Shown: in pieces, positions 3,066-32,160 of the stretch
Numbering within the stretch: position 1 is the first letter of the stretch
Layout of the letters: every line of letters begins with the position of its first letter
Assembly (NCBI GenBank): GCA_002778455.1
Contig: PFCD01000001.1
Coordinates: forward strand, 53,445 to 117,444
Length of the DNA stretch: 64,000 bases
Direction: 5' to 3'
DNA from: Candidatus Micrarchaeota archaeon CG10_big_fil_rev_8_21_14_0_10_45_29
Lineage (GTDB): Archaea; Micrarchaeota; Micrarchaeia; Anstonellales; Anstonellaceae
Program-made: the position numbers and the translations under genes
Notes under the pieces: model-generated
Seen by the model: only the letters and a program-made list of their open reading frames with translations
Database searches by the model: none
Told to the model about the DNA's origin: nothing

Positions 3066-3995
3066 ATGAAGATGCGAAAAAAAACACAAAAGCAAAAAGA
3101 CGAGGCGCCTGCCCCGTATGTGAGCACGCCGCTAAGGCATTCTTTTTCCGATTCCTCCCCGTTTGCAAACCTTTTCAAGTCAATAGCCTCGCGCCTTCCT
3201 TCCCTGCAGCGCAACCTTGACATGGCGGAAATGGACGCGCATGCGCCAGAGTTTGTAAAAAAGAGCCTCATAAGCGCCCTCTTTTTCACAATAGTGCTTG
3301 AGGCGATAATTCTCTGGGCAGCCATATCTGCCGGAACAAGCGCCCTTTTGCTAATAGGCGCCGCCCTTCTCACAACCGTTGTTATATTTTTGACAATGTT
3401 TAACATGGGCATAAACCAGCCCAAGCTCAAAATAATAAGGCGCGGAAAAGAAATAGACAAGGAAATAGTTTTTTGCGGCCGCCATCTTCTAATAGAATTG
3501 CGCTCGGGGGTAACCCTATTTGACGCCATGCTCGGAGTGTCCGAGGATTACGGGGAGGTAAGCAAGGAATTTAACAAGATAGTTGAAAAAATAACGCTGG
3601 GGGTTCCCTCCTCCGTCGCGTTGCATGATGTCGCCTCCCAGTCTCCCTCCTCCTATTTCAAGCGCGTTGTATTGCAGATAGCAAACTCCATAGCATCCGG
3701 CTCGGACATAGGGGACTCTTTGGAGGCGGTCCTTAACCAGGTTGCAAAAGAGCAGATAATACAGCTAAAGGAATATGGGCAAAAGCTAAACCCGCTTGTT
3801 ATGTTTTACATGCTTTTTGGAATAATTATTCCCTCAATAGGAGTCGCCTTCATGATAATAGTTTTCTCTGTAGTGGGCGCCGGCTTTGAGGCAATCGGAA
3901 CAACTCTTATTGCAGGCGTATTCGCCCTTGTGGCAATAATGCAGTTTCTTTTCCTTACTGTGGCTGAAAACGCAAGGCCCAACTTTGACTTATAG
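3066..3995 (+). CDS. TadC/FlaJ-like membrane protein with a T2SS-F domain (pilus assembly platform subunit)
   Basis: It has N-terminal and C-terminal TM helix clusters flanking a cytoplasmic T2SSF-like helical segment ('GVTLFDAMLGVSEDYGEVSKEFNKIVEKITLGVPSSVALHD'). It sits between a secretion ATPase gene and a pilin gene. Confidence 0.55.
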   Translation: MKMRKKTQKQKDEAPAPYVSTPLRHSFSDSSPFANLFKSIASRLPSLQRNLDMAEMDAHAPEFVKKSLISALFFTIVLEAIILWAAISAGTSALLLIGAALLTTVVIFLTMFNMGINQPKLKIIRRGKEIDKEIVFCGRHLLIELRSGVTLFDAMLGVSEDYGEVSKEFNKIVEKITLGVPSSVALHDVASQSPSSYFKRVVLQIANSIASGSDIGDSLEAVLNQVAKEQIIQLKEYGQKLNPLVMFYMLFGIIIPSIGVAFMIIVFSVVGAGFEAIGTTLIAGVFALVAIMQFLFLTVAENARPNFDL

Positions 3996-4003
3996 GTGCG
4001 ATT

Positions 4004-5074
4004 ATGGCAAACTCATCATACGAAATAATAGGGCGCGGCTTTGGAAGGGAGAAAATAAAGGCTTTCGGAATCTTCCTAAAAAGCGGGGGCTTTAAGGTTG
4101 CCCCTGAAAAATTTGCAGGGCTTTACATTGTGCTCGGCTTTCTTGCCGCACTGCTTGCATCTATTCTTTTCCTTACGCTTGATTCGCTTCGCGCATATAT
4201 ATTCAAGCTGGCGCTCTTTACCATGCGCCCGCTGGCAGTGGATTTCTCATTCACCGTGCCTGCCCTTACCCTAATCTTATGCTTTGCAGGGGTATTCACC
4301 TTTTTCGCCCTTCTCATATATGTGGTGGTAATACTTTCCGCAGATTCTAGGCGCAACAAGGTGGAGGCGGTATTGCCTGACTTTCTTATTTTGGCAGCCG
4401 CCAACTCACGCGCAGGCATGACGGTCGACCAGGCGCTCTGGCATGCGGCAAAGCCAGAATTCGGGCTTCTCTCCGATGAGGTGCAAATAGTTGCAAAAAG
4501 GGCATTCGGAGGAGTCCCATTCGGCGAGGCGATAGACCATCTTGCATACAGCTTTAATTCCAAAATAATAAGGCGCACAGTATCCCTCATAAAACAGGGG
4601 CTTGCCTCAGGCAGCCAAATAGCCGTAATACTTGACCGCACAGCCGCAGACGCGCGCGACATGCAGATAATAAGGCGCGACATTGCCGCCTCCCTCCTTA
4701 TGTATGTAATTTTCATAGTATTTGCAGCCGCAATAGGCACTCCTTTCCTTTTTGCAGTTGCGGCAAAGCTTGTTGCTTTGATGGAAAACGTTTTTGCAGA
4801 CATCCCTACTGCGGATGAGCTCTCCTCATTCGGCGGCTCCACATTTATCCAGCCCCAGCCGCCAATAGTTACAAGCGAGCAATTTTTCATATTCGTGCTT
4901 CTCTCACTTGTGCTCACATCCATTACCGCCTCTCTTCTCATAGGCGTAATACAAAAAGGCAAATCCCGCGAAGGGGTAAAATATTTGCCATTTATACTGG
5001 TGGTGGGGCTTGTGCTTTTCTTTGTGGTAACCGAGCTTGTCACCTCCGTAATGGCAGGGCTTGGCGCGGGGTAG
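4004..5074 (+). CDS. Second TadC/FlaJ-like T2SS-F domain membrane protein
   Basis: It has multiple TM helices and a T2SSF-like segment ('SRAGMTVDQALWHAAKPEFGLLSDEVQIVAKRAFGGVPFGEAIDHLA'). It is tandem with the previous gene. Confidence 0.55.
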   Translation: MANSSYEIIGRGFGREKIKAFGIFLKSGGFKVAPEKFAGLYIVLGFLAALLASILFLTLDSLRAYIFKLALFTMRPLAVDFSFTVPALTLILCFAGVFTFFALLIYVVVILSADSRRNKVEAVLPDFLILAAANSRAGMTVDQALWHAAKPEFGLLSDEVQIVAKRAFGGVPFGEAIDHLAYSFNSKIIRRTVSLIKQGLASGSQIAVILDRTAADARDMQIIRRDIAASLLMYVIFIVFAAAIGTPFLFAVAAKLVALMENVFADIPTADELSSFGGSTFIQPQPPIVTSEQFFIFVLLSLVLTSITASLLIGVIQKGKSREGVKYLPFILVVGLVLFFVVTELVTSVMAGLGAG

Positions 5075-5828: not shown

Positions 5829-7382
5829 TTATTTTCCTTTTTTCACTTCCTTATAAGTCCTATACTTTCTTATACCCCGCCTCCCATGCCTTCTCTCAAG
5901 CGTGGCGCCTATGAGCAGCACCACCATTATGGAGAGAAGCGTAATTATCATTGTGGGGTTATACCTATAAACAGGAAAAGTGGTTGAGAGCGCCTCAAAC
6001 CCGTCCATTATTGCCGTAATATTAAATATCGAATGAAGCACTATTGCGGTGGCAACCCCTGGGACAAATATTACCGCAGACAATTTGCCCCAGCTGTGAT
6101 GCTCTTTTGCCCACCCCAGCGTCGCTCCCAGCGTTCCGCTAAAGCATGCGTGCGCAATTGAATTGAAAAAGCTTCTATAAATTATTATCCCTGCCCATGC
6201 CCCAATTCCCATTTGCAAAGGGTCTGTTTTTGAGGCAAAATAAAGCCAATTCTCAACAAAGGCAAACCCAAGCCCTGTGGCAAGCCCCAAATGAAGCCCG
6301 TGCAAAGTATCGCAATATTCATGGTGGGTTGAGAGCCCAAGAAGCCCCAGCCCTTTTAGCACCTCTTCAATAACCGGCGCAATTACAGCCGTTGTAAGAA
6401 GTATTGCCCCCGCGCTTCCAAGCCCGAAAAATTCGCTTAGCGCCTGCGCCTGATATGAATTTATAATAAGGGACGCAACTGCGGCGCTTATGCCCCACAC
6501 AAATGCGCCCCCCAAAAACCGCAAAGGCATCTTCTCCACAAGCTCATTATATATCCAAATGAGGGCAAAATACACCACAGGCATGAAAAGCGCGCCCAAA
6601 AACGTCAGCGCCATTATCGCAACATTCTCACCTTGGGCGGATTTTGCTATTATTGCCGCTATTATGATAAGAAGCAAAACCTCAAGCGCCCAAAAAAGAG
6701 GATTTATCAAAACCCCCGCGATTATCTGCCCTATATCTTTTCCCTTAATAACCGGCAAAAAGAAAGTTTTCATAGTATATTCTTTTTTGTATTTTGAGTT
6801 CGCCTTGCTCCTATATGCCCATTCCGAGAGTACAAGAAGCAAAAATATGATAAAGCCTGCCAAAGCAGGTATGATTACCTGCGCCCCTTCAAACAAAATC
6901 CTATTTTGCTCCTTCTCATACTCGCCCCAATTTTCATCAACATCAAAATATTGCCCAAGCGGCACCGCTCCCCCGGTGGCAACAACCGCGTATTGGGTGG
7001 AAGAGCGGCTTTTTCCAGCATAGCTTGCCTCAAAATAAACAATATATTTCTCGCTTCCCCCCGGCTGCACAAGCCCGAGCACTTTTTGCGCCCTCCACTC
7101 TCCGTCATCCTCTTTTTTAAGCAAATAAACTATCAAGTCATTATCATAATAATTTGAAACCCATATGCGCGCAGTTATTTTCGTGGGGGTGTAATTAAGC
7201 GCATTTTGCTCCACTTCAATATTTGCAGGCAATCCGTATGCAAAATCCTCCAAATTTGTAATATTTGCAGCATGCGCAACACTCACCGCCTGCAAAAAAA
7301 GAAAGATAAAAAATAAGGCTGGCAGAAGCGGCGCGCCAGAGCGCCCATTCTTCCCACTTTTCAAAAGCATAATTTCCCTCAT
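5829..7382 (-). CDS. PrsW-family intramembrane metalloprotease-like protein with an N-terminal extracytoplasmic domain
   Basis: It has a signal/TM segment plus about 8 TM helices. PrsW-type motifs are present: 'APVIEEVLKGLG' (EExxK), 'FAFVENWLYF' and 'NSIAHACFSGTLG' (HxxxxxxG). The likely start is the ATG at 7380-7382, which overlaps the upstream stop as ATGA; the ORF track extends it to 7460. Confidence 0.5.
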   Translation of the reverse strand: MREIMLLKSGKNGRSGAPLLPALFFIFLFLQAVSVAHAANITNLEDFAYGLPANIEVEQNALNYTPTKITARIWVSNYYDNDLIVYLLKKEDDGEWRAQKVLGLVQPGGSEKYIVYFEASYAGKSRSSTQYAVVATGGAVPLGQYFDVDENWGEYEKEQNRILFEGAQVIIPALAGFIIFLLLVLSEWAYRSKANSKYKKEYTMKTFFLPVIKGKDIGQIIAGVLINPLFWALEVLLLIIIAAIIAKSAQGENVAIMALTFLGALFMPVVYFALIWIYNELVEKMPLRFLGGAFVWGISAAVASLIINSYQAQALSEFFGLGSAGAILLTTAVIAPVIEEVLKGLGLLGLSTHHEYCDTLHGLHLGLATGLGFAFVENWLYFASKTDPLQMGIGAWAGIIIYRSFFNSIAHACFSGTLGATLGWAKEHHSWGKLSAVIFVPGVATAIVLHSIFNITAIMDGFEALSTTFPVYRYNPTMIITLLSIMVVLLIGATLERRHGRRGIRKYRTYKEVKKGK

Positions 7383-9073
7383 ACGGGAATAAGCCCCCTT
7401 ACCAAAAGCATTGCAAGCCCGGCATATTTCAAGAAATATACTATCCCCTTGTCCCACCACTCATTTTTTCTTTTGATTACTTTTATAAGCGGCTTGAAAG
7501 CATCTCTTTCCGCAACTCCTAATTTGCTGTCGCTGATTTTTGTGTGCTCTTTGCCGTCCACTACTGATTTTTCCTCAATTTTGCCAATCTGCTTGTTTGC
7601 CTGCGCATACCAGGGGGGCAAAGTGGACTGCTTTTTCATAATTGCATTAAAGTAATCCATTGCTGTAATTTTTCTCTGCTTTCCGGTTTTAAACGCAATT
7701 CTCCAGGGAATTGCAGCCGCCTCTTCTGTAAGCGCTTTTAGGTCTGCCGCGGCATACCCCAAAGTGGCAAAAGCCATAAAGCTCCATGGCATCACGCCTG
7801 CCAAAGGAAGTTTTTTTGCATGCAGCTTAAGTATCTCTTTTCTTGAGGTAAAATCCGGCTCGGGAATATAAATGGTTTTTCCAAACCTTCCCGAGCGGCG
7901 CAAAGCAGGGTCAACATCCCACGGAGCGTTTGTGGCTCCGATAACAAGCACATTGGCGTTGTCTGCCTCCATTCCGTCCATCTCGTATAAAAGCTGGTTT
8001 ACCGCCATTTTCATATACTGCGCCGAGCCGCTCATCTCCTCACGCCTTCCCCCCAGCGCCTCAACTTCGTCAAAGAAAATAATGCATGGCGCGTTTTTTC
8101 TCCCAGTCTCAAAAATATTGTGCAAATTTTTCTCAGTCTGCCCAACATACATGTCAACAATGTCCGAGACTTTTGCGTTAATAAAAGCCGACGAGCACTC
8201 CCCCGCCGTCGCCTTTACAATAAATGTTTTTCCGCATCCTGGGGGGCCGTAAAGCAATATTCCCCCTCCTCCCATCTTGCCGTATTTTCTTGCCAGCTCC
8301 GGCTGCACAAGCGGATAAACCGCAGCTTCATTAATTTCCTCTTTCATTTTTCTCATGCCTGCAACATCCTTGAAATTCATTTTCGGCTTTGAGAGTAATT
8401 TCACGGGGTTTATTCCCTGTGGCTGCTGCCCCGGCGCACCGCCTGCGGGGTTTTCAGGCCCGCCCGGCGCCCCCGGAGCCGGCCCTCCTGCGCTTTGCTT
8501 TGCTTTTGCAATTTCAAGATGGTTTTTCGCCTCGTCAAAGCCGGGATTCAGCTCTATCGCCTTCTCATAATCCTTTATCGCATCATCAAGCTTATTCTGG
8601 TAATCAAAGGCAAGCCCGCGAATATGGTATGCTTCTGAAAAAGAGGGATTTATTTCCACTACCTGGGTAAAATCCTCAACCGCCTTCTCATATTCCTGCT
8701 GGCAGGCGTATGCAAGCCCCCTGTTGTAAAATGCTTTCAAATATTTCTTATTTAGCGAGAGCGCCTTGTCATAATCTGATATGGCGTTTGCAAAATCCTG
8801 CTTTCTGTAATACGCATCTCCCCTGTTATTGTAAATTACGGGGTTTTTCGGGTCCAATTCCGCGGACTTTGAATAATCGTCTATGCTTTTGTCAAATCTT
8901 TTTAAATTATAATAGCAAAGCCCCCTGTTGAAATAGCTTTCGCTAAAAGTGGGGTTAAGTATAATAGCCATATTATAATTTTCAATCGCCTTATCATACT
9001 CCCCTTTCTCAAAAAGCTGGTTGCCTTTATGGTAATACGTCCTTGCGTCTGTAGGGTTCGGCTTATCTACCAT
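7379..9073 (-). CDS. TPR-repeat protein fused to a single AAA+ ATPase domain
   Basis: The N-terminal region has repeated TPR motifs ('YYNRGLCYYNLKRFDKSIDDYSKSAELDPKN', 'AYHIRGLAFDYQNKLDDAIKDYEKAIELNP'). Walker A 'LLYGPPGCGKTF' and Walker B 'IIFFDEVEAL' are present, followed by an SRH-like segment. Confidence 0.8.
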   Translation of the reverse strand: MVDKPNPTDARTYYHKGNQLFEKGEYDKAIENYNMAIILNPTFSESYFNRGLCYYNLKRFDKSIDDYSKSAELDPKNPVIYNNRGDAYYRKQDFANAISDYDKALSLNKKYLKAFYNRGLAYACQQEYEKAVEDFTQVVEINPSFSEAYHIRGLAFDYQNKLDDAIKDYEKAIELNPGFDEAKNHLEIAKAKQSAGGPAPGAPGGPENPAGGAPGQQPQGINPVKLLSKPKMNFKDVAGMRKMKEEINEAAVYPLVQPELARKYGKMGGGGILLYGPPGCGKTFIVKATAGECSSAFINAKVSDIVDMYVGQTEKNLHNIFETGRKNAPCIIFFDEVEALGGRREEMSGSAQYMKMAVNQLLYEMDGMEADNANVLVIGATNAPWDVDPALRRSGRFGKTIYIPEPDFTSRKEILKLHAKKLPLAGVMPWSFMAFATLGYAAADLKALTEEAAAIPWRIAFKTGKQRKITAMDYFNAIMKKQSTLPPWYAQANKQIGKIEEKSVVDGKEHTKISDSKLGVAERDAFKPLIKVIKRKNEWWDKGIVYFLKYAGLAMLLVRGLIPV

Positions 9074-11323: not shown

Positions 11324-11423
11324 AAATTCTTCAGCCAAAAATATTTCTGCGCATTTTAAAGCACATTTTTCCCTCTTCGTAGTTTTCCCCAGAGTTTTTA
11401 AACAACCTCTCTTTAATTAGCGC

Positions 11424-14400
11424 ATGGGCGTTTTTGCGCAAGCACCCAACAGCCAGAGGGAAGACCATGCTTTTGAGGGCGAGCCGTTGGCAGAAGCTTC
11501 CCCTGCTTTGCGCAATTCTCCAATTTCGCGCACAGACCACACATATGTGAATTTAGAGATGGCATATGCGCGCGCGCAAGCAAAGCAAACCTCTATAGAG
11601 AATAAGCAGCAGGATTTCACAATGCTCTCGCGCCAGCTCTCCCTTTCGCGCTTTTCCCCAGAATCTTCATTTCCCGCGCAGGATGAGAAATCCATAATAG
11701 AGAAAATGAATTTGCTTGCCATCTCCTCAATTTCCAGCACAAATATTCCAGAATTTATTTCCCAATACGCGCAGCCCTTTATAAAAATAGCAAAAGATGC
11801 CGGATTAACCGACATCGCGCAAAAAATTGAAAATTATGCAAAAATTCTTGCAGAAACCACGCGCATAAATATCTCCTCCTCCCCGCGCCTTCAAAACCTT
11901 GGCAATTTGCTCTCTTTCAGGCCCGCCGACGTTTTTGAGGCAATAAAATATTGCACATTTCTCACTTCCGAGAAAAAAGTATCCCTTCTCTCCTCCCTCT
12001 CACAGTTCTCGCCAGAATATCTGCCCCCTTCCCAAAATTTTGCAACAGAGGAGGCGGCGCTAAAGCAAATAGAGCTTGCCTCAAATATCTCAACAGCGCG
12101 CACCTTTGCCCAGGATTACACAATCGCAAGCATAGGCGGCATAAAATCATTGCGCTTTCTTGGCACAGAAATCTGGTTTTCCCCGCAAGAAAAGAATTCC
12201 TTAATAGAGAAAATATGGGATGAAAATAAGCTTGCGCGCGAAGGAAAAGAATTGCAGGAGGAAAACATTCCTGAAAATATTGCCCAATGCTCGCTTGATT
12301 ATTGCAATTCCGCCCTCGCATATGCAAATTACATCTCTGTCACAACCTCAAGCAACGACATATTGGGCTTTGTATCCGACTTTGCAGTTGAGGCAAACGA
12401 TGCCATAAACAATATAGCCAAATTGCAGCTTGAGGGCGCGCCAAAGCTTGAAATAGTGGAAGAGCTGATAAAATTCGAAGAATTTTTCCAAAACTGCCAG
12501 TCCCTTGTGGCAGAGCAGGCGCACTATGAATCCCTTTACAAGCAGGCAGGCAACAACCCATTTCTCAACGCCCTTGTATGGGCAAACAGAAACGGGCACA
12601 CCGCCAACCTGTGGATGGCATTCGGGATGTCACTTTACAATCCTGTATTAGGGCAGGCGGCATTTGGGATGCTTGGTGCGCGCGACATAAAAGAGGGAAT
12701 AGAAACAAAGGATTTTAACCGAATAATATTCGGAACCGCAATGCTTGCAGGCATGTCCCAAAACCCGCTCATATCCGGCGCCTCGCACTCTTACATCCAG
12801 CTCTCAATAGGAAAAGACGCGCTTTACCTGGCAGATGACATAAACATAAACGGGGTAAATCCGCGCAACCTCCAATCTCTCCTTGACCTCTCAATCCTAT
12901 CTTTGGGGGTGCTCAACTCGCGCGCACAGGAAAAATATTCTCCCCATGATTTTCGCTATGGGGGGCCGCGAGCGCAATTCTCCGCCCCCGCGCAGCTGCC
13001 GTGGTTCACAGAGCTTTTTAACCTGGAATATTTTCGCAACAAAAATTTTGCTGCTTTGGCAGACGCAATAAAAAAGAACACCGAAATAAAATCCCCCCAA
13101 AACGACGAGGGAATAGTGCGCCACATTGCAATCCTCTCAAAATCCTTTAATGAACAGGAAATATCTCAAATTTGCTCGCGCATCTCACAAGATAAAAACA
13201 CCTCCTGCCTTATGGATGCGAACTTCCTTCTTTCCGTGGAGCTGAAAACTCAGGGCATGCACTGGGAAAACGCAGGGGGGGTAAATTATTTGCGCCCCGG
13301 CAAAGAGCCCGCCCCCCGCGAGCCGGTAGGCGGCACGGCATTTATCCCGAAAAAAAGCGGCGGCGAGCAAAAGCCCCGCATTGAGGAAAATTCTTCCCTA
13401 CTGCAAGATGAAACTATTGCAAAAAAGCTTGCAGATGCCGGGATAACAGAGAAGGCAATGCAAAGAATAGAATCGCTTGAAGGATACACTCCCGAAGCAA
13501 AAGAAATATTGCGGGAAATTATCTCAAAATCCCCTCAAGAAAGCCTAATGGTAAACTTTTATGCATTTGAATCCATCCTTGGGAAAGGCCCGCTTCCCGA
13601 AAATGTAATTTCTGCCCTAAAGACACAAATCTCAATCTGCCCTGCAGAAAATCTCCTAAACTTTCTTGTTATGGTTGAGAAGGCGCACCCTCTTCTCATA
13701 GATGAATACGGCTCAGAGCTTTCCTTCCCCATCATGGAGATGCTCCAAAACCCGAACCTATCCTCATATCCGCTCTGGAGGGATTTCCTCTTCTCCCTAA
13801 AACAGGGGGAATCATACCTCTCTCATGCCTCTGCTTTTCTTACGCTCAGTTCTATCCTAAAGAGCAGTTATTTCAAGCCCGAACACTGGAGTTTGCTTCA
13901 CAAACTGCACAATAAAACCGACATCAAGCAAAATGCAGATGTTCTCAAAGAGTTTTTCAAACTGCTTGAGGGGGGGCATCTCTCGCCAGAAAATATTCAA
14001 AATTTAAATTCTTTTCTGGATTTTATGCCCCGCATCAATAAGCTCTCTATGATAGAATTCAGGGAAAGGGCGGAAAGGAGCGGATATGACTTTGACAACT
14101 CCTTCCAATTGGCGCAAAGCTACAGGGAGCGTTTTTCTTTGGGAAAAGATGTGTGGGGGGACTGGGCATTAAACCTTCTATCTAATGTGGATGCCATCAA
14201 GCAGCTTGATGCTCTGAACCTGAAGGCAGCCGACTTTCTTTGCAAAAACCAGGGAATCCGCTTTTTTGGAAGGTATGATGCAGGCGTTCTTTTGAGGCAG
14301 TATGAAAATTACGGAAAACGCGATTCCTCAAAGCCGCTGATGCTTGCCATCAATGCCCTTTCGGATTACAGCGGAGCCATTTCCCTTGTCAGAAACAACA

Positions 14401-17400
14401 TAAGCTACCTTGACCAAAACCTTGACATTAAAATTTATGAGGCAAGCTCGCCTTTTTCAGCCGCAAGAAGCATTGTTGATACATACAACAACTACGGCCC
14501 TATATCTACTCTCTGGGTAGGCGGGCACGGAGATGTGGGAAGCATAAGGTTTGGGCACGCCTGGCCTGCCGGGCTCATAACCGCGCAGCAAATCGCAAGC
14601 GGATCAGATCTTGGGCGCTATTTCATCTCCCATCCCTCGGTTATTTTTGTGAGCTGCAGCACAGGCATTGATTTACCGGGAGGATTTGCAAATACAGCCA
14701 GTGGCAGGTATAATGGAATTTTCTATGCGCCACAGGGAGAAACCCTTCTTGACAACATAACCTACAAAGGGTTAGATGAAAATTCTACTCCCCTATTTGA
14801 CATAAGATGGTCAGTTTCTCCAGGATCAATATTTTCCGAAGGAAAGCCCTCTTCCCCAAAAACACAAAATCCAAACATCCAATTCCCTGTAGGCGGCACG
14901 GCATTTGTGCCCGCCCCGCCAAAAAGAATTTCCGCCCCGATAGATTTTGAGCGCACTTTAGCCCCAAAAAGCGCGGACGACATAAAATTTGAGCTTAATA
15001 CCCTTCTTTCCAATTTGCGCTCGCTTGAGCAAACGGCAAAAGATTTTTCAGATGATTTTAAAATGGGGCAATTAAACCAAAACATGCTCAATTCCCTTCA
15101 AAAGCAGCTAAAAGCCCTTGAGCAGGACGCAAAATTCGTACAAGAGCCGGCAGAATCCGCCCTTATCGCATCCAAAATAGCCAACGCAAAGCTGCTAATC
15201 GCAAATACGCAATACCATCTCTCACATGAGCCTGTCGGCGGAGTTGCAAAAAAGCCCCCCTCGGCAATTGAAATAGGTTTAGACGGAAAGCCTACTGGCA
15301 GAAATATAAATTTAGAAACTACTTATACTCCAGAATATTTTGAAGGAAGATTGGCAATAGACCAAACCACTCCATACATAGAGCTTGCAGAAGGAAAAGC
15401 GTTAGAAATATACAGGCGAAGCGACTTTAACGATTATTTTCTTTTGCAAAGAAAAGGAAATGAGCTTGAAATAAGCTGCATCTCGCAAAATTTCAGCCCA
15501 GAGCAATATATGGAAAACCTTGGCTACCAAAAAACATCGATATATGTATACAGGGCGCAAGAGCCGTCTGTACGACAAGTAATTGATGGCGCAACAACTC
15601 TAAAAAAAGGCGACAGAGTAGTATTTAGCTTCGGAGCCCCGGAAGGACAATCCCCCTCATTTATATTTGACGGCAAAAAGCTTGTAAATTCTGCAGAGCA
15701 GGGCTGGAAAGCAAGCCAGCCTGTCGGCGGAGTTGCACACAAGCAGAATGTGCAGCCAACAAAAATAATCCCTCTACAGGCAAAAATGGAAAATTTCTCA
15801 AACAGCCAGGAAAAGCTAAAACTTCACCTCCATGACTGGAAAAGCTCTGCATATAATGCATATAACTCCAGCAAGTTAATTCTTGATGACATATCCCGCC
15901 TAAAAAACTCCGGGGTAATGGATGCGCGCCTTGATTTGCTTGAGCAAAAATTCAAATCCCATTTGCAGGTGCTTGATGCCCCCTCAAACACCATAAAAAA
16001 CGAATTTGAGTCAAGAATGCGAGAGCCGACACAGGAGGGCACGCAGGAGCTTTTGGGCATAATGAAAAAAAACACCTCCCAAATCCTTGATTATATCAGC
16101 AACTCAACCCTTAAGGCAGACATAAAAGAGCTTGAGTTAATATTGCGCGACAATTCCAAAACAAGCGCAGAGGCAAAAACAATCCTTGAGGAAACCGTGC
16201 AAAAGAGCAAAAATACAAACCTCTCCGCAATTGATGAGATGGGCTCAACCCTTCCATCCTACCTTGAGCCAACATACGACGTTTCTCAAATATCTTTCGG
16301 AGGGGTAAGCCAACTCTCGCTTGAGAGCACGCAACTCTCCCCGCTTGTAGAGAAAGCAATAGCTTCCCAGAGTGCATCCTATCCCAAAATAAAAATAAGT
16401 GTGGAGGGGCTCTCCCCCGAAATTTATGCGATGGTTGATGCGCAGGCATTCTCCTCAATTGTGGGAAACATGCTTGCAAATTCCCTCAAATACACCGCAG
16501 AATATGCCTCCAAAAACCCGGGCGCATTTCCCGATGGGCAGGAAATAAAACTTTCCTTGCGGCAAAACGATTATGGAAGCGGCTTTCGCACCCTTGAGAT
16601 AACTGTTGAGGATTTTGCCTCCGGCATGACTTATGAGCAGGCGGCAAGCGCATTTGAGGGCAAGCCAAGCACAAACGCGGTCGGCTCCTCAACAGGGCTT
16701 GCGATGAGCACTTCGCAGAAGCTTGCGCAAATGATGGAAGGGGATTTGCGCATCGACTCGCGGGGGCGAGCTTCAGGGGAGCCCTCAACAAAATTCACTT
16801 TTGAGATTCCGCTCAAATCCCAAGAAGCCCTCAACATAGAATCTGACATGGGCATAAGCATTGAGCCGTCCCAAAAACCCGGAAAATTTGATATTTATAT
16901 CGGAGAAGGGCAATCAAAGGCGTATGCCGGCTCTTTTTCGCAAGAGCGCGCCGCCCTTTTCAAATCCCAGTTCCTCATATACCAGCAAAACTTTCCAGAT
17001 ATTCTTCTCCCGGAAATATCTCATAGCATACAAAGCATTGACGGGCTAATGTCTGCCTTTGGAAAATGGAGGGTAAAGCAGAGCAGCGGGGACATGGCGA
17101 ATTACCTCGAATACCTTAATTCCAATTCCCTGCACCACTCTTTTGAGCCGTATTTTGAGCAAATAAAATCAACTCTCAATTCCATGGGATACGAATACAC
17201 TAATGGGCAGATTCCTGTCCGCTACCAGGGAAGCGCCCCAGTCTTTATGTTTAGCACGGATGGAAAGCTTGGAAAGAAAGAGTTTGTCCTAAAAATAAAA
17301 GACGGGCTGGAGGAGGAGATTGCCTCTAAAGTTCTAAACCTTTTCGGGAGAAATACCCATGCCATTTACTCCCCTTCAAAAGATTTTTGCATAATGGAAA

Positions 17401-17972
17401 AGCTTGACATATCCACCCCTGAGGAGGTATTTCTCTCAGGAAGGCCAGCAGAACTGTCCGGCTTGCTCTCCGAAGGGGAGGAAAAATCAGAATACCTAAA
17501 GCAAAGGGGCTCATGGGCGGCAGATGAACTCTTCTTTGCCCTTGGCGACGGGCACACGAGAAATTACATGCTTCTGGATTCAAAAGGCACTCTTGCAAGG
17601 ATAGACTTTCAGGCATTCGGATATTCAAATCCCTCTCCCCTGCATTCCATGGAGCTTAATCACCTGTGGGGATATTTTCGTTCTGAGGGCTCTATACGCC
17701 CAGAGCTTAAAGGAGCCTTCATGGAACGTTGGACAGAGTTGCAGCTCATGCTCTCAGAACCTTCTGTCCGACAGGAGCTTCTCTCAATATATGAGGGATA
17801 TTTCTCAAATCCGAATTACAAGCAGCGCCTTCTGAGCATAGCACCCGAAAACGCCTACTCGCGGCCTTTTTATAATCTAACTCCAAAACAAATAGTGGAC
17901 AACCTCTCCAAAAACCTGCAGTTTGATGCAGAGATTGCATGGGAGAGATTTTCAGGTGAATATGCAAGATGA
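11424..17972 (+). CDS. Giant (2182 aa) multidomain protein with four PVGG(T/V)A motifs, a putative clan-CD (caspase/CHAT-like) His-Cys dyad, a GHKL/HATPase_c domain and a possible kinase-like C-terminus
   Basis: It is a single uninterrupted 6.5-kb ORF. The HATPase_c N-box is 'IVGNMLANSLKYT', the G1-like motif is 'EDFASGM' and the G2 motif is 'GSSTGLAMS'. 'WVGGHGDVGS...VIFVSCSTG' looks like a His/Cys protease dyad. The C-terminal 'LGDGHTRNYMLLDSKGTLARIDFQAFG' is reminiscent of kinase catalytic and DFG loops. No H-box was found. Confidence 0.65.
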   Translation: MGVFAQAPNSQREDHAFEGEPLAEASPALRNSPISRTDHTYVNLEMAYARAQAKQTSIENKQQDFTMLSRQLSLSRFSPESSFPAQDEKSIIEKMNLLAISSISSTNIPEFISQYAQPFIKIAKDAGLTDIAQKIENYAKILAETTRINISSSPRLQNLGNLLSFRPADVFEAIKYCTFLTSEKKVSLLSSLSQFSPEYLPPSQNFATEEAALKQIELASNISTARTFAQDYTIASIGGIKSLRFLGTEIWFSPQEKNSLIEKIWDENKLAREGKELQEENIPENIAQCSLDYCNSALAYANYISVTTSSNDILGFVSDFAVEANDAINNIAKLQLEGAPKLEIVEELIKFEEFFQNCQSLVAEQAHYESLYKQAGNNPFLNALVWANRNGHTANLWMAFGMSLYNPVLGQAAFGMLGARDIKEGIETKDFNRIIFGTAMLAGMSQNPLISGASHSYIQLSIGKDALYLADDININGVNPRNLQSLLDLSILSLGVLNSRAQEKYSPHDFRYGGPRAQFSAPAQLPWFTELFNLEYFRNKNFAALADAIKKNTEIKSPQNDEGIVRHIAILSKSFNEQEISQICSRISQDKNTSCLMDANFLLSVELKTQGMHWENAGGVNYLRPGKEPAPREPVGGTAFIPKKSGGEQKPRIEENSSLLQDETIAKKLADAGITEKAMQRIESLEGYTPEAKEILREIISKSPQESLMVNFYAFESILGKGPLPENVISALKTQISICPAENLLNFLVMVEKAHPLLIDEYGSELSFPIMEMLQNPNLSSYPLWRDFLFSLKQGESYLSHASAFLTLSSILKSSYFKPEHWSLLHKLHNKTDIKQNADVLKEFFKLLEGGHLSPENIQNLNSFLDFMPRINKLSMIEFRERAERSGYDFDNSFQLAQSYRERFSLGKDVWGDWALNLLSNVDAIKQLDALNLKAADFLCKNQGIRFFGRYDAGVLLRQYENYGKRDSSKPLMLAINALSDYSGAISLVRNNISYLDQNLDIKIYEASSPFSAARSIVDTYNNYGPISTLWVGGHGDVGSIRFGHAWPAGLITAQQIASGSDLGRYFISHPSVIFVSCSTGIDLPGGFANTASGRYNGIFYAPQGETLLDNITYKGLDENSTPLFDIRWSVSPGSIFSEGKPSSPKTQNPNIQFPVGGTAFVPAPPKRISAPIDFERTLAPKSADDIKFELNTLLSNLRSLEQTAKDFSDDFKMGQLNQNMLNSLQKQLKALEQDAKFVQEPAESALIASKIANAKLLIANTQYHLSHEPVGGVAKKPPSAIEIGLDGKPTGRNINLETTYTPEYFEGRLAIDQTTPYIELAEGKALEIYRRSDFNDYFLLQRKGNELEISCISQNFSPEQYMENLGYQKTSIYVYRAQEPSVRQVIDGATTLKKGDRVVFSFGAPEGQSPSFIFDGKKLVNSAEQGWKASQPVGGVAHKQNVQPTKIIPLQAKMENFSNSQEKLKLHLHDWKSSAYNAYNSSKLILDDISRLKNSGVMDARLDLLEQKFKSHLQVLDAPSNTIKNEFESRMREPTQEGTQELLGIMKKNTSQILDYISNSTLKADIKELELILRDNSKTSAEAKTILEETVQKSKNTNLSAIDEMGSTLPSYLEPTYDVSQISFGGVSQLSLESTQLSPLVEKAIASQSASYPKIKISVEGLSPEIYAMVDAQAFSSIVGNMLANSLKYTAEYASKNPGAFPDGQEIKLSLRQNDYGSGFRTLEITVEDFASGMTYEQAASAFEGKPSTNAVGSSTGLAMSTSQKLAQMMEGDLRIDSRGRASGEPSTKFTFEIPLKSQEALNIESDMGISIEPSQKPGKFDIYIGEGQSKAYAGSFSQERAALFKSQFLIYQQNFPDILLPEISHSIQSIDGLMSAFGKWRVKQSSGDMANYLEYLNSNSLHHSFEPYFEQIKSTLNSMGYEYTNGQIPVRYQGSAPVFMFSTDGKLGKKEFVLKIKDGLEEEIASKVLNLFGRNTHAIYSPSKDFCIMEKLDISTPEEVFLSGRPAELSGLLSEGEEKSEYLKQRGSWAADELFFALGDGHTRNYMLLDSKGTLARIDFQAFGYSNPSPLHSMELNHLWGYFRSEGSIRPELKGAFMERWTELQLMLSEPSVRQELLSIYEGYFSNPNYKQRLLSIAPENAYSRPFYNLTPKQIVDNLSKNLQFDAEIAWERFSGEYAR

Positions 17973-18673
17973 CAAGCAAACATCCAATACGAGCAATAAA
18001 TTCGGACCTTGTGCATACAATAGTTTCTCATATGCCTGCAATAACAAATTTGGGCAAAGCATTTGAAAAACTGGGGCCGCTGGAGCACAAGGTAAGCAAT
18101 CGGGGCTGGACCCAGCTGCGCACCGACTTTCTGCTTCATCAGGGGCCGTATCCATGGCAAGGGGAGCAAAAAGCCCAAGGCATAGAGGAGGCCGATCTTG
18201 CCTCCAGCATCAAAACACTGGCAAAATCCCTTGACATGAAAGAAATTATTATAGGAAAAACTCTTGCATATAATAATGAAAAAAATTCATTGCTTCTCTC
18301 CCCTGACGGGGCAGCCGCAGCCGCAATAATGCAATATTACATGGGAGAAGAAATCTCCCTTGCAAAGTCTCTCATAAAAAGCATAGTAAAAGGAAATACG
18401 GGATATCTCCTCCTACAAGAGCCAAGAAGGGCAGCCGCTGCGTATTTCTTTTTGCACATAGCCGCCAACGGAATAGACGGCGCCCTTTGTGATTTGCGGG
18501 TTTCTCAAGCATACTCTGCAGAGCTGCACTCAAAATCTCTTTACCTTCCAAAGAATTTCTATTTTGAGTTAAATCGCATCCACCTAAACTTTTTGGAATC
18601 CCTGCTGCGCGGGGACGGGGCAACCTTTTATGAATACCTAACCTCTACCTCAAGCCCCTCTTTCAAATCATAA
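17969..18673 (+). CDS. Hypothetical protein, translationally coupled (ATGA overlap) to the giant gene
   Basis: It is a 234-aa ORF with no recognisable domain. Its start overlaps the upstream stop by 4 nt. Confidence 0.4.
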   Translation: MTSKHPIRAINSDLVHTIVSHMPAITNLGKAFEKLGPLEHKVSNRGWTQLRTDFLLHQGPYPWQGEQKAQGIEEADLASSIKTLAKSLDMKEIIIGKTLAYNNEKNSLLLSPDGAAAAAIMQYYMGEEISLAKSLIKSIVKGNTGYLLLQEPRRAAAAYFFLHIAANGIDGALCDLRVSQAYSAELHSKSLYLPKNFYFELNRIHLNFLESLLRGDGATFYEYLTSTSSPSFKS

Positions 18674-19940: not shown

Positions 19941-21323
19941 ATGGATGAAAAATTGCTTGGCTGGGAAGCAAAAAGGCAAAAAGGCGCCTACAACTGCCAG
20001 CTTTCCCCCTTAAGCGAGGAGGAGCAAAAATTCCTCTCCCTTTTATGCGCCGAATTCTCTGAATTTAGCAAAACAAGCGAAATCTCCTCCGAGGCGCAGG
20101 CAAAAGAGGCGATAGAGAAAATATTTCTCAAATTAACTAAAAAAGAGGGAATAGACGCCGACGAGGAGCAAAAGGAATATCTGCAAAAGGCGGCCCTCTC
20201 GCATTTGCACGGCTTTGCGCCCCTTGATGCCATGCTCTCAGACAATGAAATAGAGGAAATAGCCGCCATAGCAATAAACGAGCCGATTCGCGTGTATATA
20301 AGAAAAAAGGGCTGGCAAGACACAAACGCATATTTCACAACGCATGAACATTTAATCCACCTGATAAACAAGATGTCCCGCCCGCTAGGCAGAAGAATCA
20401 CAAGCCAGAGCCCGCGCATAAACGCGCTGATGCCCAACGGCTCGCGCCTTCACGCGACAATTCCCCCTCTCTCTGCAGGGGAGCTTACCATCCGGCTTCA
20501 TGGCGCAAAAAAATGGGGCGTTTGCGACTTATTGCAAAGCCAGTGCATAAGCGCCGACGCGCTCGCATTTCTCTGGCTAGCATTTCAGTCCGACTCCTCT
20601 GTCCTTATTTGCGGCAACACCTCATCAGGCAAAACAACTTTGCTAAATTGCCTTCTCTCCTTTGTGCCCCTGCGCGAGCGGCTCATAATAATAGAGGAAA
20701 CGCCAGAAATAACCCCTCCCCACCCCCACCGCGCCTCCCTTGTATCAAACGACGATTTGAAAATAAATATGTGCGATTTGGTGCGCGACTCTTTGCGCAT
20801 GCGCCCGGACAGGGTGATAGTGGGGGAGGTGCGCACCCCTCCCGAAGTTGAGGCATATGTTGAAACCCTTCTCTCAGGGCACGCGCGCGGCTCATATGCG
20901 ACTTTTCACTCAAATTCCGCTTCCGAGGCAATAAGGCGCATGTGCAATTTGGGCGCAATGCCCGACGATTTGGCATCCCTTGATTTTTTAATATTGCAAA
21001 GGCGCATCTCCCGCTACTGCCCCTCCTCAAAAAAGCAAACAGAGGCAAGGCGCATGATAGGAATTTTTATGCCAAAAAGGCATGAGAGGGGGGAGCTTTT
21101 TGGCTTTGATTTGCTTCCAATATTTGAATACAGTGAAAAATCCGATTCTTTGCAAAAAGCCCGCGGCTTTGAGGATGCGATGCAAAAAATATCGCAAAAG
21201 CTCGCAATTCCCTCCGCAGAGGCAAGAAAAATATTTGTTGAGAGGGAGAAATTCCTCGCCTCCTTGACATGCAAGGACGCGGCAGAGGAATGCAAAAAAA
21301 TCCAGAAATTCGCATATGGGTGA
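19941..21323 (+). CDS. Type II/IV secretion system ATPase (FlaI/TadA/CpaF family)
   Basis: Walker A is 'LICGNTSSGKTTLLNCLL'. 'RMRPDRVIVGEVR' is the Asp box/Walker B region. 'GHARGSYATFHSNSASEAIRRM' is the His box. Confidence 0.8.
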   Translation: MDEKLLGWEAKRQKGAYNCQLSPLSEEEQKFLSLLCAEFSEFSKTSEISSEAQAKEAIEKIFLKLTKKEGIDADEEQKEYLQKAALSHLHGFAPLDAMLSDNEIEEIAAIAINEPIRVYIRKKGWQDTNAYFTTHEHLIHLINKMSRPLGRRITSQSPRINALMPNGSRLHATIPPLSAGELTIRLHGAKKWGVCDLLQSQCISADALAFLWLAFQSDSSVLICGNTSSGKTTLLNCLLSFVPLRERLIIIEETPEITPPHPHRASLVSNDDLKINMCDLVRDSLRMRPDRVIVGEVRTPPEVEAYVETLLSGHARGSYATFHSNSASEAIRRMCNLGAMPDDLASLDFLILQRRISRYCPSSKKQTEARRMIGIFMPKRHERGELFGFDLLPIFEYSEKSDSLQKARGFEDAMQKISQKLAIPSAEARKIFVEREKFLASLTCKDAAEECKKIQKFAYG

Positions 21324-21326
21324 ATT

Positions 21327-23048
21327 ATGCTGCAAAAAATAATCTTATTTATTGAAACCCTCCCCTTTCACCGCATTTACAAAGGGGAGAGAAGAATTCA
21401 AATAAATGAAAATTTGCAAAAATCCCAAGCCCCCCTCCCCCCAAGCGCATTTCTTAACATAATTGCCCTTCTCTCGCTTGCCTCTCTCCCCCTCTCATTT
21501 TTTGCAGGGCTTTTCCTTTTCCCCTCATTTGAGGGCGCGGCAGGCATCTCTCTCATAATTTTTTCCCTCTGCCTTTATTGCGGCTTTCTTATTCCCAAAC
21601 TGCTCTCAACCCGCCAAGCGCAACTTGCTGAAGCTGATTTGCCGCTTGCATTGCGCGCAATCTCGCTTCATTTGCGAATAGGCGTTTCTTTTGAAAAAGC
21701 CATCGAGCATGTTGCCATCTCAAATTACTCATGCTCCAAAATATTTGCGGATGCCATGCGCCAAATAGGTTCCGGCGCATCTGTTCCTTCCGCCCTCTCA
21801 AAAGCCGCCGCAAGCATCTCATCAGTTCCAATAATGCGCGCCTTTCACCAGCTTTGCGCGGTATATGAGAGCGGCGCAAAGCCGGACGCCCTTGACTCCC
21901 TTGCGCAGGAGCTTATTTCCCGCCAGCACACGCAAATAAAATTGCAGGCATCGCGGGCGGCAATTTTTTCCCTTCTCTTTGTTGCCGCCTCCTCCCTTCT
22001 CCCCGCCTTTTTCCTTATCCTCAACATCTCGGCCGGCCCGCTGCTTGGCTTTAAGGGCGAGCCATTTCAAATATGGGCATTTTACCTTCTTCTTCTCCCT
22101 GCAATAAACATCCTTGCCCTCGCGCTTGTAATCGCCTCCGCCCCCTCCCTCGCCTCATCGCAGAAGCAAAAGCAAATATTAAATGAGGCAAAAATTTTGT
22201 GCGAGAAGGCCGGCTTTCCTCCCTTTAGCACAACCCACCTTATTCTCTCAAGCATTTTGCTCTGCGCCGCCGGCTTTATCCTCCCCTCTTTGCTCGGGGT
22301 TTCCTCCCTCTCCCCCCTTTTTGCCCTTCTCTTTGCATCCCTTCCCTCCCTCTCAAAAGCATATTTTGAGGGAAAAGCAACAGCAGACGCCTCCTCAATA
22401 GAGCAGGAGCTTCCAGGCATGCTTTTTTCAGGCGCAACAAGCCAGAGTTTCTCTTTGGAGAAAATGCTCTCCTCCGCGCGCGCCGGCTCTCCTTTGGCAG
22501 AGCAGTCAAAAAAGGCATTGCGCCAAATAAATGCAGGCGCCAACCCATTATTCGTGCTTGAAAAATGGGCAAATTCAACCTCTTCCCCCTCACTTGGGCG
22601 CGCCCTTCTTTTGCTGATGATTGGCTACAAAACAGGGGGAAGCATGCAAAAGGCGCTCTCTTGCGCGGCAGATGATTTGCTCTCCTCACTTGCGCTTGTG
22701 AGGGAGAGGGCGGCGCTTCTTTCTATTCAAAATTACACAATCTTAGCCGCTTCCGCCTTCCTCATCCCGGCAATTTTGGCGGTTTCCCTCTCATTTTCCT
22801 CCCAAATATCGCAAATAAGCGCGCCTTCGGCAACAGGGGAAAATTCCATTTATTCTATTTTTGATTTCTCCTCCTCATCCTCCCTCATAGCCGCCGCCCG
22901 CGCCGCCATTCCCGCCTATCTTATTATAAACGCGGCCCTTGCCGCCTTTTTCATCGCCCTCTCGCAGGGCGCCCGCGAGAAATTTTTATATTATTTCTCC
23001 ATTTTGGCAATAGTTTCCCAAATAGTGTGGCTGATAGCATCCGGGTAA
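21327..23048 (+). CDS. FlaJ/TadC-like polytopic membrane protein with two T2SS-F-like domains
   Basis: It has many TM helices. The T2SSF-like segment is 'LALRAISLHLRIGVSFEKAIEHVA ... SALSKAAASISSVPIMRAFHQL'. It lies immediately downstream of the ATPase with a 3-nt gap. Confidence 0.55.
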   Translation: MLQKIILFIETLPFHRIYKGERRIQINENLQKSQAPLPPSAFLNIIALLSLASLPLSFFAGLFLFPSFEGAAGISLIIFSLCLYCGFLIPKLLSTRQAQLAEADLPLALRAISLHLRIGVSFEKAIEHVAISNYSCSKIFADAMRQIGSGASVPSALSKAAASISSVPIMRAFHQLCAVYESGAKPDALDSLAQELISRQHTQIKLQASRAAIFSLLFVAASSLLPAFFLILNISAGPLLGFKGEPFQIWAFYLLLLPAINILALALVIASAPSLASSQKQKQILNEAKILCEKAGFPPFSTTHLILSSILLCAAGFILPSLLGVSSLSPLFALLFASLPSLSKAYFEGKATADASSIEQELPGMLFSGATSQSFSLEKMLSSARAGSPLAEQSKKALRQINAGANPLFVLEKWANSTSSPSLGRALLLLMIGYKTGGSMQKALSCAADDLLSSLALVRERAALLSIQNYTILAASAFLIPAILAVSLSFSSQISQISAPSATGENSIYSIFDFSSSSSLIAAARAAIPAYLIINAALAAFFIALSQGAREKFLYYFSILAIVSQIVWLIASG

Positions 23049-23659: not shown

Positions 23660-24418
23660 ATGGACATAAACGACGCGTGGAAAGACACGTGCAAAATAGT
23701 CCTTGGCGGAGAAATAGGCGATTTGCAAAAATATGAAAAATATCTTCAAACCTATGTCGAGCCAATATATGAGAAAAACTCCTCCCTAAGCCAAAAGAAA
23801 GTAATAATCTCACGTCCGGACTTTTGCAAAAATGCAAAATTCATCTCATTTGACGAGCAGGAAAAATACAACAAGCAAATTTCGGATATAAAACTAAACT
23901 TAAACCAGATAAAAGACATAGATTCAATTCTCTCCTCAATAAGCGAGCAATTTTATTATGCAGGCAACCAGATAACCGGCAACTGCTCAAACATAGAAAA
24001 TTCGGACAATGTGATGGATTCGCATTATGTAATAAATTCAATAGAAATCGCGGGGGGAAAATTTATCGCCTACTCCTCAATGGCGCGCTTTGACGAATAT
24101 TTATTCGGAGTAAACTGGTCGGGGCAGGCAAAATACTGCATAAAATGCTTTGAAACATACAAGCAAAGCCGCTGCTTTGAGACTTTGAGCGTCTGGACAT
24201 CCTCCGACTGCTATTATTCTGCCCGCCTTGAGGGATGCGGCGACTGCATATTCTCATTTAACCAAAAGCACAAAAACAACCTTATAGGCAACCTGCAATT
24301 TCCAAAAGAAGAATATGCAAAACGCAAAAAAGCGCTTCTTGATCAGATAAGAAGCACTCTTGAGAGCAAGAAAAGAATACGCTCAATACTTGAGATAATG
24401 GGGGGTGTCAATGGGTGA
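23660..24418 (+). CDS. Cys-rich paralogue, A-module only (252 aa), unit 1 of the array; unknown family
   Basis: The N-terminus is 'WKDTCKIVLGGEIGDL..YEKYL', followed by 'KSSLSQK', 'IKDIDSI' and 'FYYAGNQITGNCSNIENSD'. Then come Cys ladders ('SSDCYYSARLEGCGDCIFSFN') and an 'IGNLQFPKEEY' tail. It is homologous to the other seven genes. Confidence 0.7.
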   Translation: MDINDAWKDTCKIVLGGEIGDLQKYEKYLQTYVEPIYEKNSSLSQKKVIISRPDFCKNAKFISFDEQEKYNKQISDIKLNLNQIKDIDSILSSISEQFYYAGNQITGNCSNIENSDNVMDSHYVINSIEIAGGKFIAYSSMARFDEYLFGVNWSGQAKYCIKCFETYKQSRCFETLSVWTSSDCYYSARLEGCGDCIFSFNQKHKNNLIGNLQFPKEEYAKRKKALLDQIRSTLESKKRIRSILEIMGGVNG

Positions 24419-25175
24419 GCAAATAGAGGGCGCATTCTCCTCGGTCACTTCAATTCTTTTCGGCAAAGCCCTCCAAAAAATTGACGACTACGGGGATTGG
24501 CTTTTGAAAAATCGAAGAAAGATAAGAACCGTAAAATCCACAATAAGCGGCAAAGAGGAGCTGATACCTCCGCTGGAGTTTCACCACGCAATCGACAGGG
24601 TATATGTTACAAACGAAGAGGCATTCAAACTCGGGGAAACAAAAGCAAAAAAAGAGGACATAGAAAAAACCACCATCCAAAACGCGGACAAAACACTCAA
24701 AAACATCCTTTATTACTCTCCCGACGTGCAAATGGGAAAAAATCAGGAAATGGAATTTTGCGCCCACTACATTGACTGCCAATTTTGCTACAAATCCGTC
24801 TCCATGGGGCATGTAAAATATGCTGCTTACTCTTTTTGGCCCCGCGACTCGGAATACATGTTTGGAGTGGACACCGTATTCTCCTCAAAATTCTGCATAA
24901 AATGCTACAATTCGGTAAATTTAACCCGCTGTTTTGAAACCTCCCACTCCTCCCATTGCTCTGACTGCTATTTCTGCCACAACTGCGACGGCTGTTCCGA
25001 GTGCATGTTTTGCACAAACGCAAAAAGCCTTCGCTATGCAATATTCAACAAACAATATCCAAAAGAGGAATACTTAAAACTCAAAAAGAAAATACAGGAA
25101 GAAATCTTCGCAAAATTGGAAAAAGATAAAAAATTAGACTTAAACATATTCAATTTAGGGTGCTATAAAAAATGA
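24405..25175 (+). CDS. Cys-rich paralogue, B-module only (256 aa), partner of 23660..24418
   Basis: 'FGKALQKIDDYGDWLL', 'YSFWPRDSEYMFG' and 'HCSDCYFCHNCDGCSECMFC' (7 Cys spaced CxxC) are present. The tail is 'YPKEEYLKLKKKIQEEIFAKLEKDKKLDLNIFNLGC'. It overlaps the upstream gene by 14 nt. Confidence 0.7.
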   Translation: MSMGEQIEGAFSSVTSILFGKALQKIDDYGDWLLKNRRKIRTVKSTISGKEELIPPLEFHHAIDRVYVTNEEAFKLGETKAKKEDIEKTTIQNADKTLKNILYYSPDVQMGKNQEMEFCAHYIDCQFCYKSVSMGHVKYAAYSFWPRDSEYMFGVDTVFSSKFCIKCYNSVNLTRCFETSHSSHCSDCYFCHNCDGCSECMFCTNAKSLRYAIFNKQYPKEEYLKLKKKIQEEIFAKLEKDKKLDLNIFNLGCYKK

Positions 25176-32148: not shown

Positions 32149-32160
32149 GGCATATGCCCT

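Follow-up and report, generated by a model that had tools for sequence, protein, structure and literature searches.

Kinases of the PI3K/PI4K/PIKK type are considered essentially eukaryotic, apart from a few bacterial effectors. Here, we describe a giant protein of a Micrarchaeota archaeon, in which a kinase domain resembling this class is joined to a cysteine peptidase domain of clan CD (caspase-hemoglobinase fold) and to a GHKL ATP-binding domain, and whose gene overlaps a small partner gene. It is encoded in a stretch of 64,000 nucleotides (the window, to which positions refer unless another locus is named) of Candidatus Micrarchaeota archaeon CG10_big_fil_rev_8_21_14_0_10_45_29 (contig PFCD01000001.1, positions 53,445 to 117,444).

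The systems closest to the kinase domain are the PI3K/PI4K lipid kinases and the PIKK proteins (Vps34, PI3Kα, PI4KIIIβ, mTOR, ATM/Tel1, SMG1, DNA-PKcs). However, the identity to them amounts to 10-15% and reaches none of the Pfam thresholds, accessory domains (FAT, FATC, C2 or helical) were not identified in the giant, and its kinase family has been found in DPANN archaea only. The joining of a caspase-like to an mTOR-like kinase domain calls to mind the pair of Raptor and mTOR, without implying common descent. For the peptidase domain, the closest known proteins include Tce1 and Tce2, the DUF4347 putative cysteine-protease effectors of the P. aeruginosa H3 type VI secretion system (H3-T6SS), and the C80 cysteine protease domains of TcdA/TcdB and of MARTX toxins. 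In contrast to these, the giant is archaeal, has no Pfam match to DUF4347 or Peptidase_C80 and gives no sign of activation by inositol hexakisphosphate or of secretion. CHAT-domain peptidases (SAVED-CHAT of CBASS-like defence, TPR-CHAT/Csx29 of type III-E CRISPR) are also among the closest systems, but the giant is not matched by Pfam CHAT or by PADLOC, has neither a SAVED nor a TPR sensor domain and does not lie in a defence island. As a whole, it resembles the MARTX and large clostridial toxins in being a giant polypeptide of several linker-joined enzymatic modules with an internal clan-CD peptidase. Those toxins are secreted, bacterial, equipped with translocation regions and repeats and experimentally proven to be processed, whereas the giant is known from its sequence. 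Finally, its GHKL unit is reminiscent of degenerate (pseudo) histidine kinases, which include DivL of Caulobacter and some plant ethylene or phytochrome-type kinases: the catalytic and ATP-binding domain has N, G1 and G2 boxes and comes after a helix that is DHp-like but has another residue in place of the His. Unlike for those proteins, no cognate two-component partner or sensory domain was found, and the role of the unit is a putative one.

The explanation that best accounts for all observations together, to which we assign a probability of roughly 55%, is a core of kinase and coupled partner with a pseudo-histidine-kinase regulator and a peptidase that would cut its own polypeptide at PVGG linkers. 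The giant itself is an uncharacterised, DPANN-specific combination of known folds, and two of its sequence families as well as the partner are absent from curated libraries.

A kinase domain with a coupled partner

The giant open reading frame (ORF; 11424..17972, + strand) starts with ATG and comprises 2182 codons with no internal stop, which agrees with the single uninterrupted 6.5-kb frame claimed in an earlier note on this DNA. The short strings from which that note had derived its domains ('GGHGDVGS', 'VIFVSCSTG', 'NMLANSLKYT', 'GSSTGLAMS' and DGHTRNYMLLDSKGTLARIDF) were all located as described there. An identical record exists as NCBI 'hypothetical protein COU37_00275' of a Candidatus Micrarchaeota metagenome-assembled genome, on a contig of 372 kb. 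The protein appears cytoplasmic, since neither a signal peptide nor a membrane helix was detectable; no segment exceeds a Kyte-Doolittle hydrophobicity of 1.4, and a self-BLAST returned no internal domain repeats. About 25 nt 5' of the ATG lies the AT-rich, TATA-like element TTTTTAAA (11395..11402, + strand), read from the sequence, which suggests a leaderless archaeal transcript with this element as putative promoter.

The C-terminal kinase domain covers aa 1823-2180 (16890..17963, + strand). Lys1957 (nt 17292), Asp2042 (nt 17547), Asn2047 (nt 17562) and Asp2061 (nt 17604) are invariant in its alignment, as is Trp2103. Close to the C-terminus a conserved 'AW..F' motif includes the nearly invariant Trp2173, and Pfam gave no FAT or FATC match. 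The segment DGHTRNYMLLDSKGTLARIDF corresponds to aa 2042-2062 and begins with the catalytic loop Asp2042-x-His-x-x-Asn2047, of which His2044 is present in the giant. In the PDB sequence search, the best matches of the kinase profile were PI3Kα, PI4KB and PI4KA, and the profile string 'DDsHagNfmv..dG...RIDF' aligned with 'GDRHnsNIMV..DG...HIDFG', so that the catalytic residues of the giant line up with the PI3Kα loop. The predicted structure has a bilobal, protein-kinase-like fold, which is closer to the solved PI3K/PI4K/PIKK catalytic domains than to other kinase-like families. The kinase-like C-terminus proposed in the earlier note is thereby borne out, including the invariance of the Lys, Asp, Asn and Asp residues that it implied.

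The partner gene (17969..18673, + strand; 234 aa) overlaps the stop codon of the giant in an ATGA. A homologue of 203-234 aa was found directly 3' of the kinase-domain gene in all seven independent loci, usually overlapping its stop, although two of the seven had been left out of the building of the search profile; in pairwise comparison, identity was 24% (E 1e-13). Beside proteins carrying the peptidase domain only, the partner was absent in the loci examined. Taken together, these two observations make kinase and partner a conserved core, and the small coupled gene that had been noticed from the letters proved to be a recurrent feature. No Pfam or PDB relative of the partner was found. A role as histidine phosphotransferase was dropped, as the lone match had an E-value of 0.24 and concerned one member.

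The decisive search was an exhaustive HMMER run with aa 983-2182 as query. Its matches fell into three sets, at aa ~992-1150, at aa ~1822-2178 and, from ordinary histidine kinases, at aa ~1582-1812. According to a local re-analysis of the best 149 matches, the peptidase domain occurs in 58 proteins and the kinase domain in 11. The peptidase stands 5' of the kinase domain in P0003, P0005, P0008, P0013 and P0151, and partly in P0011. The order of the giant, peptidase, HATPase_c and kinase, was also found in P0151, a Micrarchaeota protein of 2380 aa (L001, 8001-15143) present on two separately assembled contigs; BLAST detected no similarity between its HATPase_c domain and that of the giant. P0151 also contains an HExxH-like 'HETHH' at aa ~760-790, 5' of the clan-CD domain, which is absent from the giant, and it keeps a His in its H-box-like segment ('MHNAKNLAITP'), which the giant does not. 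All homologues with a taxon name belong to DPANN archaea (Micrarchaeota/Micrarchaeia, Burarchaeum and 'ainarchaeum'), and the giant is a lineage-specific multi-enzyme protein of Micrarchaeota.

In the N-terminal half, a common module with glycine-rich amphipathic helices (aa 220-475; 12081..12848, + strand) was recognised by local phmmer in two further Micrarchaeota proteins, P0002 (aa 361-622, E 7e-28) and P0153 (aa 172-412, E 4e-22), and matched nothing in Pfam or the PDB. Across the family, the N-terminal parts are shuffled as modules, whereas the C-terminal kinase and its partner stay constant. At 12600-12800 (aa ~393-460), the module includes glycine-rich, moderately hydrophobic helices (NLWMAFGMSLYNPVLGQAAFGMLGA...IIFGTAMLAGMS), which are kept in P0002 and P0153; a stretch of P0151 resembles them. 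Although below the threshold for membrane helices, they could interact with a membrane.

The other searches added little. Word-index searches were nearly blind, as the whole giant retrieved itself only, the C-terminal segment nothing and profile A3 one member that was already known. The species-representative genome scan with the whole giant and the scan of viral contigs returned no copy, single-sequence PDB searches with four segments gave chance matches only and segment-wise Pfam at E ≤ 10 gave nothing outside HATPase_c. Four loci were added by the metagenome scan. Among the best 150 matches of the exhaustive search there was no second copy from the source genome.

Peptidase domain, GHKL unit and linker motifs

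The clan-CD peptidase domain spans aa 936-1143 (14229..14852, + strand), a region whose predicted structure is an α/β/α sandwich matching solved clan-CD members. Asp981 (nt 14364), His1035 (nt 14526, within 'GGHGDVGS') and Cys1078 (nt 14655, within 'VIFVSCSTG') do not vary among 33 sequences with an identity of only 25-44%, which argues for retained catalysis; His1035 and Cys1078 are also invariant in a set of 30 sequences. In the predicted model, His1035 and the following Gly come after strand 88-94 and Cys1078 after strand 128-137. The neighbouring Ser1079 is not invariant, which disfavours a serine hydrolase. These results support the His/Cys dyad of caspase/CHAT/gingipain type that had been suspected from the two strings, and the predicted structures of both the peptidase and the kinase region resemble the folds in question, against the earlier caveat that such a resemblance might be missing. 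Among solved structures, the peptidase domain is most closely related to that of the T6SS effector Tce1/DUF4347 (PMC13323088). DUF4347 matched 4 of 30 relatives weakly (best E 1e-4), so the peptidase family is related to DUF4347 yet not a member by the Pfam criterion. In many of the proteins P0023-P0042, of about 500 aa each, a C-terminal clan-CD domain stands by itself. At least one peptidase-only protein, P0029 (L006, 6001-7773), lies on a 1.18-Mb contig together with GGDEF, Crp and peptidyl-tRNA hydrolase; as this contig looks bacterial, the peptidase family probably extends to small-genome bacteria.

The GHKL ATP-binding domain (HATPase_c, PF02518; aa 1672-1798, 16437..16817, + strand) was matched by Pfam with an E-value of 6.8e-11 and 43 bits, above the gathering cut-off of 26.4, which substantiates the HATPase_c domain of the earlier note. 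Its boxes are present, with Asn1686 of the N-box in 'NMLANSLKYT', Asp1730 of G1 and 'GSSTGL' as G2. The note had also found no identifiable H-box or DHp region, and this was half right: the H-box His is gone, but a degenerate DHp-like helical region can be recognised at aa ~1545-1625 (16056..16298, + strand) in alignments to the histidine kinases P0086, P0071 and P0073. There, the phospho-accepting His, which in histidine kinases stands about 105-125 residues ahead of the N-box, aligns to Asn1560 (nt 16101), or to Ser1561 in one of the three alignments, within LDYISNSTLKADI. As aa 1514-1866 contain no His at all, the H-box His is unavailable, and the Asn or Ser at the acceptor site makes the unit a pseudo-histidine kinase, which can probably bind ATP but is unable to initiate a His-Asp phosphorelay. 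The histidine-kinase models of NCBIfam begin to align at about aa 1590 and score at most 31 bits with cut-offs of 370-1995; no HisKA match was found in the giant, and no receiver domain or response regulator in the giant or the flanking genes.

The third element is a short motif, [E/F/Q]-P-V-G-G-[T/V]-A, which occurs four times: E-PVGGTA at aa 634-639 (13323..13340), F-PVGGTA at aa 1155-1160 (14886..14903), E-PVGGVA at aa 1270-1275 (15231..15248) and Q-PVGGVA at aa 1433-1438 (15720..15737), all on the + strand. At the DNA level, these four matches compare with 0.05 expected, and there is none elsewhere in the window. All four are placed where modules meet, in sequence rich in Pro and Lys. The second one follows the last peptidase strand by 12 residues, in a low-confidence tail behind the peptidase fold (predicted local distance difference test score, pLDDT, below 50). 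In a simple shuffle test, some 4-mer was repeated at least four times in 2% of the shuffles, and by our estimate the pattern of six residues has a far lower probability.

Weighing the explanations

According to the explanation that we favour, the kinase would act as output enzyme, and the partner would either regulate it or be its substrate. For the pseudo-histidine-kinase unit, we envisage a regulatory role by ATP binding or dimerisation, not one as donor in a phosphorelay. Cleavage of the giant by its own peptidase at the four PVGG[T/V]A motifs would release modules, comparable to the cysteine protease domain of MARTX and large clostridial toxins.

A number of points weigh against this explanation. 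The PVGG motif is absent from all homologues, so that autoprocessing at this motif cannot be family-wide. Copies 1 and 2 are near-identical in DNA, as are copies 3 and 4, and the two pairs differ from each other at synonymous positions; the near-identity may mean that they are recent, functionless micro-duplications. Clan-CD peptidases usually have Asp, Asn, Arg/Lys or Leu at P1, the toxin protease domains cut after Leu, unlike at the candidate site, and we know of no clan-CD peptidase with a Gly-Gly specificity. Autoprocessing is the weakest inference of all, the motif being unique to the giant and Gly-Gly being no known specificity of the clan. Further points concern the domain assignments. 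The kinase alignment is shallow (12 sequences). Pfam PI3_PI4_kinase (PF00454) does not match the giant, and in its relatives it stays below threshold, with matches in 3 of 12 and E ≥ 0.02. Compared with PI3Kα, the segment after the IDF motif has none of the basic residues of PI3K activation loops, and the modelled fold is compatible with a protein, a lipid or a small-molecule substrate. CHAT (PF12770) and Peptidase_C80 (PF11713) match neither the giant nor 30 relatives, and DUF4347 (PF14252) does not match the giant even at E ≤ 10. Both the peptidase and the kinase fold were assigned from predicted models, and the activities of peptidase, GHKL unit and kinase are likewise predictions.

The main rival, which we regard as possible but doubtful, takes the giant as an effector or toxin that is delivered and comes with an immunity gene, in the manner of polymorphic toxins. 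DPANN archaea are episymbionts, and the large N-terminal region would carry the giant to the host archaeon on which the Micrarchaeota cell lives, and the peptidase would free a toxic or host-manipulating kinase; the small gene would encode an immunity protein or a chaperone. The relation of the peptidase to the effector Tce1 would suit such a role, but the giant has no signal peptide, no membrane helix and no known secretion or trafficking domain that we could find, and the type IV pilus-like genes of the window are not conserved neighbours elsewhere. Modular shuffling of the N-termini is also in line with a toxin family, yet it is the C-terminus and the partner that remain constant while the N-termini vary, the reverse of polymorphic toxins. 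The overlap of the small gene with the stop of the C-terminal enzymatic domain would fit an immunity gene, but the gene set sits among housekeeping genes, with synteny between two loci, and has no second copy from the source genome among the best 150 matches, no PADLOC match and no viral copy.

It is improbable, in our view, that the giant acts as a scaffold in which some of the domains that look catalytic are inactive, with the peptidase as an interaction module as in Raptor, functionless PVGG motifs and the kinase as the sole working enzyme. Domain decay does occur in this protein, as the key His of the histidine-kinase unit is already lost, and the near-identical DNA of the motif pairs together with their absence from homologues would agree with motifs of no function. 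On the other hand, the invariance of Asp981, His1035 and Cys1078 at such low identity is hard to reconcile with an inactive peptidase, and the GHKL domain has kept its ATP-binding boxes.

Two further alternatives are very unlikely. A conventional two-component sensor histidine kinase with extra domains would explain the significant HATPase_c match and the many weak NCBIfam sensor-kinase matches, but their scores are far under the cut-offs, and HisKA, a receiver domain, a membrane sensor and a nearby response regulator are all lacking; in its canonical form such a kinase is ruled out, as the phospho-accepting His is replaced. Equally hard to believe is a fusion of several genes by mis-assembly or frameshift errors (a pseudogene), since despite a metagenome-assembled source and the lack of a close full-length orthologue (a search of 5.8 billion clustered proteins gave no full-length relative besides the giant itself), the assembled sequence, on which the frameshift check was made, is one stop-free 6.5-kb frame with a GC content and composition similar to the rest of the window, and a separate Micrarchaeota genome has the 2380-aa protein of equal domain order with a coupled partner on two separately assembled contigs.

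The furthest-reaching form of the explanation that we favour, an undescribed prokaryotic branch of the PI3K/PI4K/PIKK superfamily that is catalytically intact, in every case paired with a dedicated partner of ~220 aa and repeatedly fused to a caspase-like peptidase, which in the giant would cut the four PVGG[T/V]A linkers, is speculative, and we consider it unlikely to hold in every part.

Genomic neighbourhood and significance

In the window, the giant is surrounded by genes for a geranylgeranyl reductase, a PHP phosphoesterase, UppS, a DUF192 protein and a FlaI/TadA-type ATPase with a T2SSF platform protein. At all loci examined the flanking genes have housekeeping functions, e.g. V-ATPase, aminoacyl-tRNA synthetase, FtsZ, SecDF and UppS. 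Two Micrarchaeia loci, L004 and L005, are syntenic over Asp/Asn-tRNA synthetase, cytidylyltransferase, the kinase-domain protein, the partner, a 126-aa ORF and a V-type ATPase operon, which gives kinase and partner a stable setting in the chromosome. PADLOC assigned neither the giant nor the partner to any family. In view of this and of the housekeeping neighbours at every locus examined, the conflict-system role that had been suggested for the giant found no support.

The window holds two sets of type IV pilus/archaellum-like genes: a pair of T2SSF-type platform proteins (3066-3995 and 4004-5074), and a FlaI/TadA-like ATPase (19941-21323) followed by a T2SSF/UpsF-like protein of 573 aa (21327-23048). 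A functional tie of the giant to the pilus-like ATPase and platform genes was rejected, as these are not conserved neighbours at the other loci. Directly 3' of the second set, at 23660-33783, about ten tightly packed or overlapping ORFs of 252-540 aa lie on the + strand; the five that were scanned had no Pfam match at E ≤ 0.001, and the ORFs may encode parts of a pilus or of the surface that are specific to the lineage. Directly 5' of the T2SSF pair lies an ORF of 862 aa (457-3045), for which Pfam gave no match. On the - strand at 5829-9073, a protein of 543 aa, which ends in an intramembrane protease domain of the PrsW family, adjoins a 564-aa protein with TPR and AAA ATPase domains. Since the two ORFs overlap by about 80 nt, the downstream one probably starts later than listed.

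In a literature search, we found no paper that treats Micrarchaeota together with PI3K, and the papers on giant proteins in DPANN archaea do not cover this family. If the furthest-reaching form of our explanation were true, the giant would be an archaeal counterpart of self-processing multi-effector toxins. With its fused peptidase and four linker motifs, the giant allows a direct test of whether an archaeal protein may process itself like a polyprotein. Pfam has no model of the peptidase family, the kinase family or the partner, and their definition would improve the annotation of DPANN genomes; it may also aid that of small-genome bacteria, if the peptidase-only proteins are bacterial. An archaeal kinase family that is structurally nearest to mTOR and Vps34 and has a dedicated partner provides a handle on the origin of this kinase class, and also on the signalling or host-interaction chemistry of genome-reduced DPANN symbionts.

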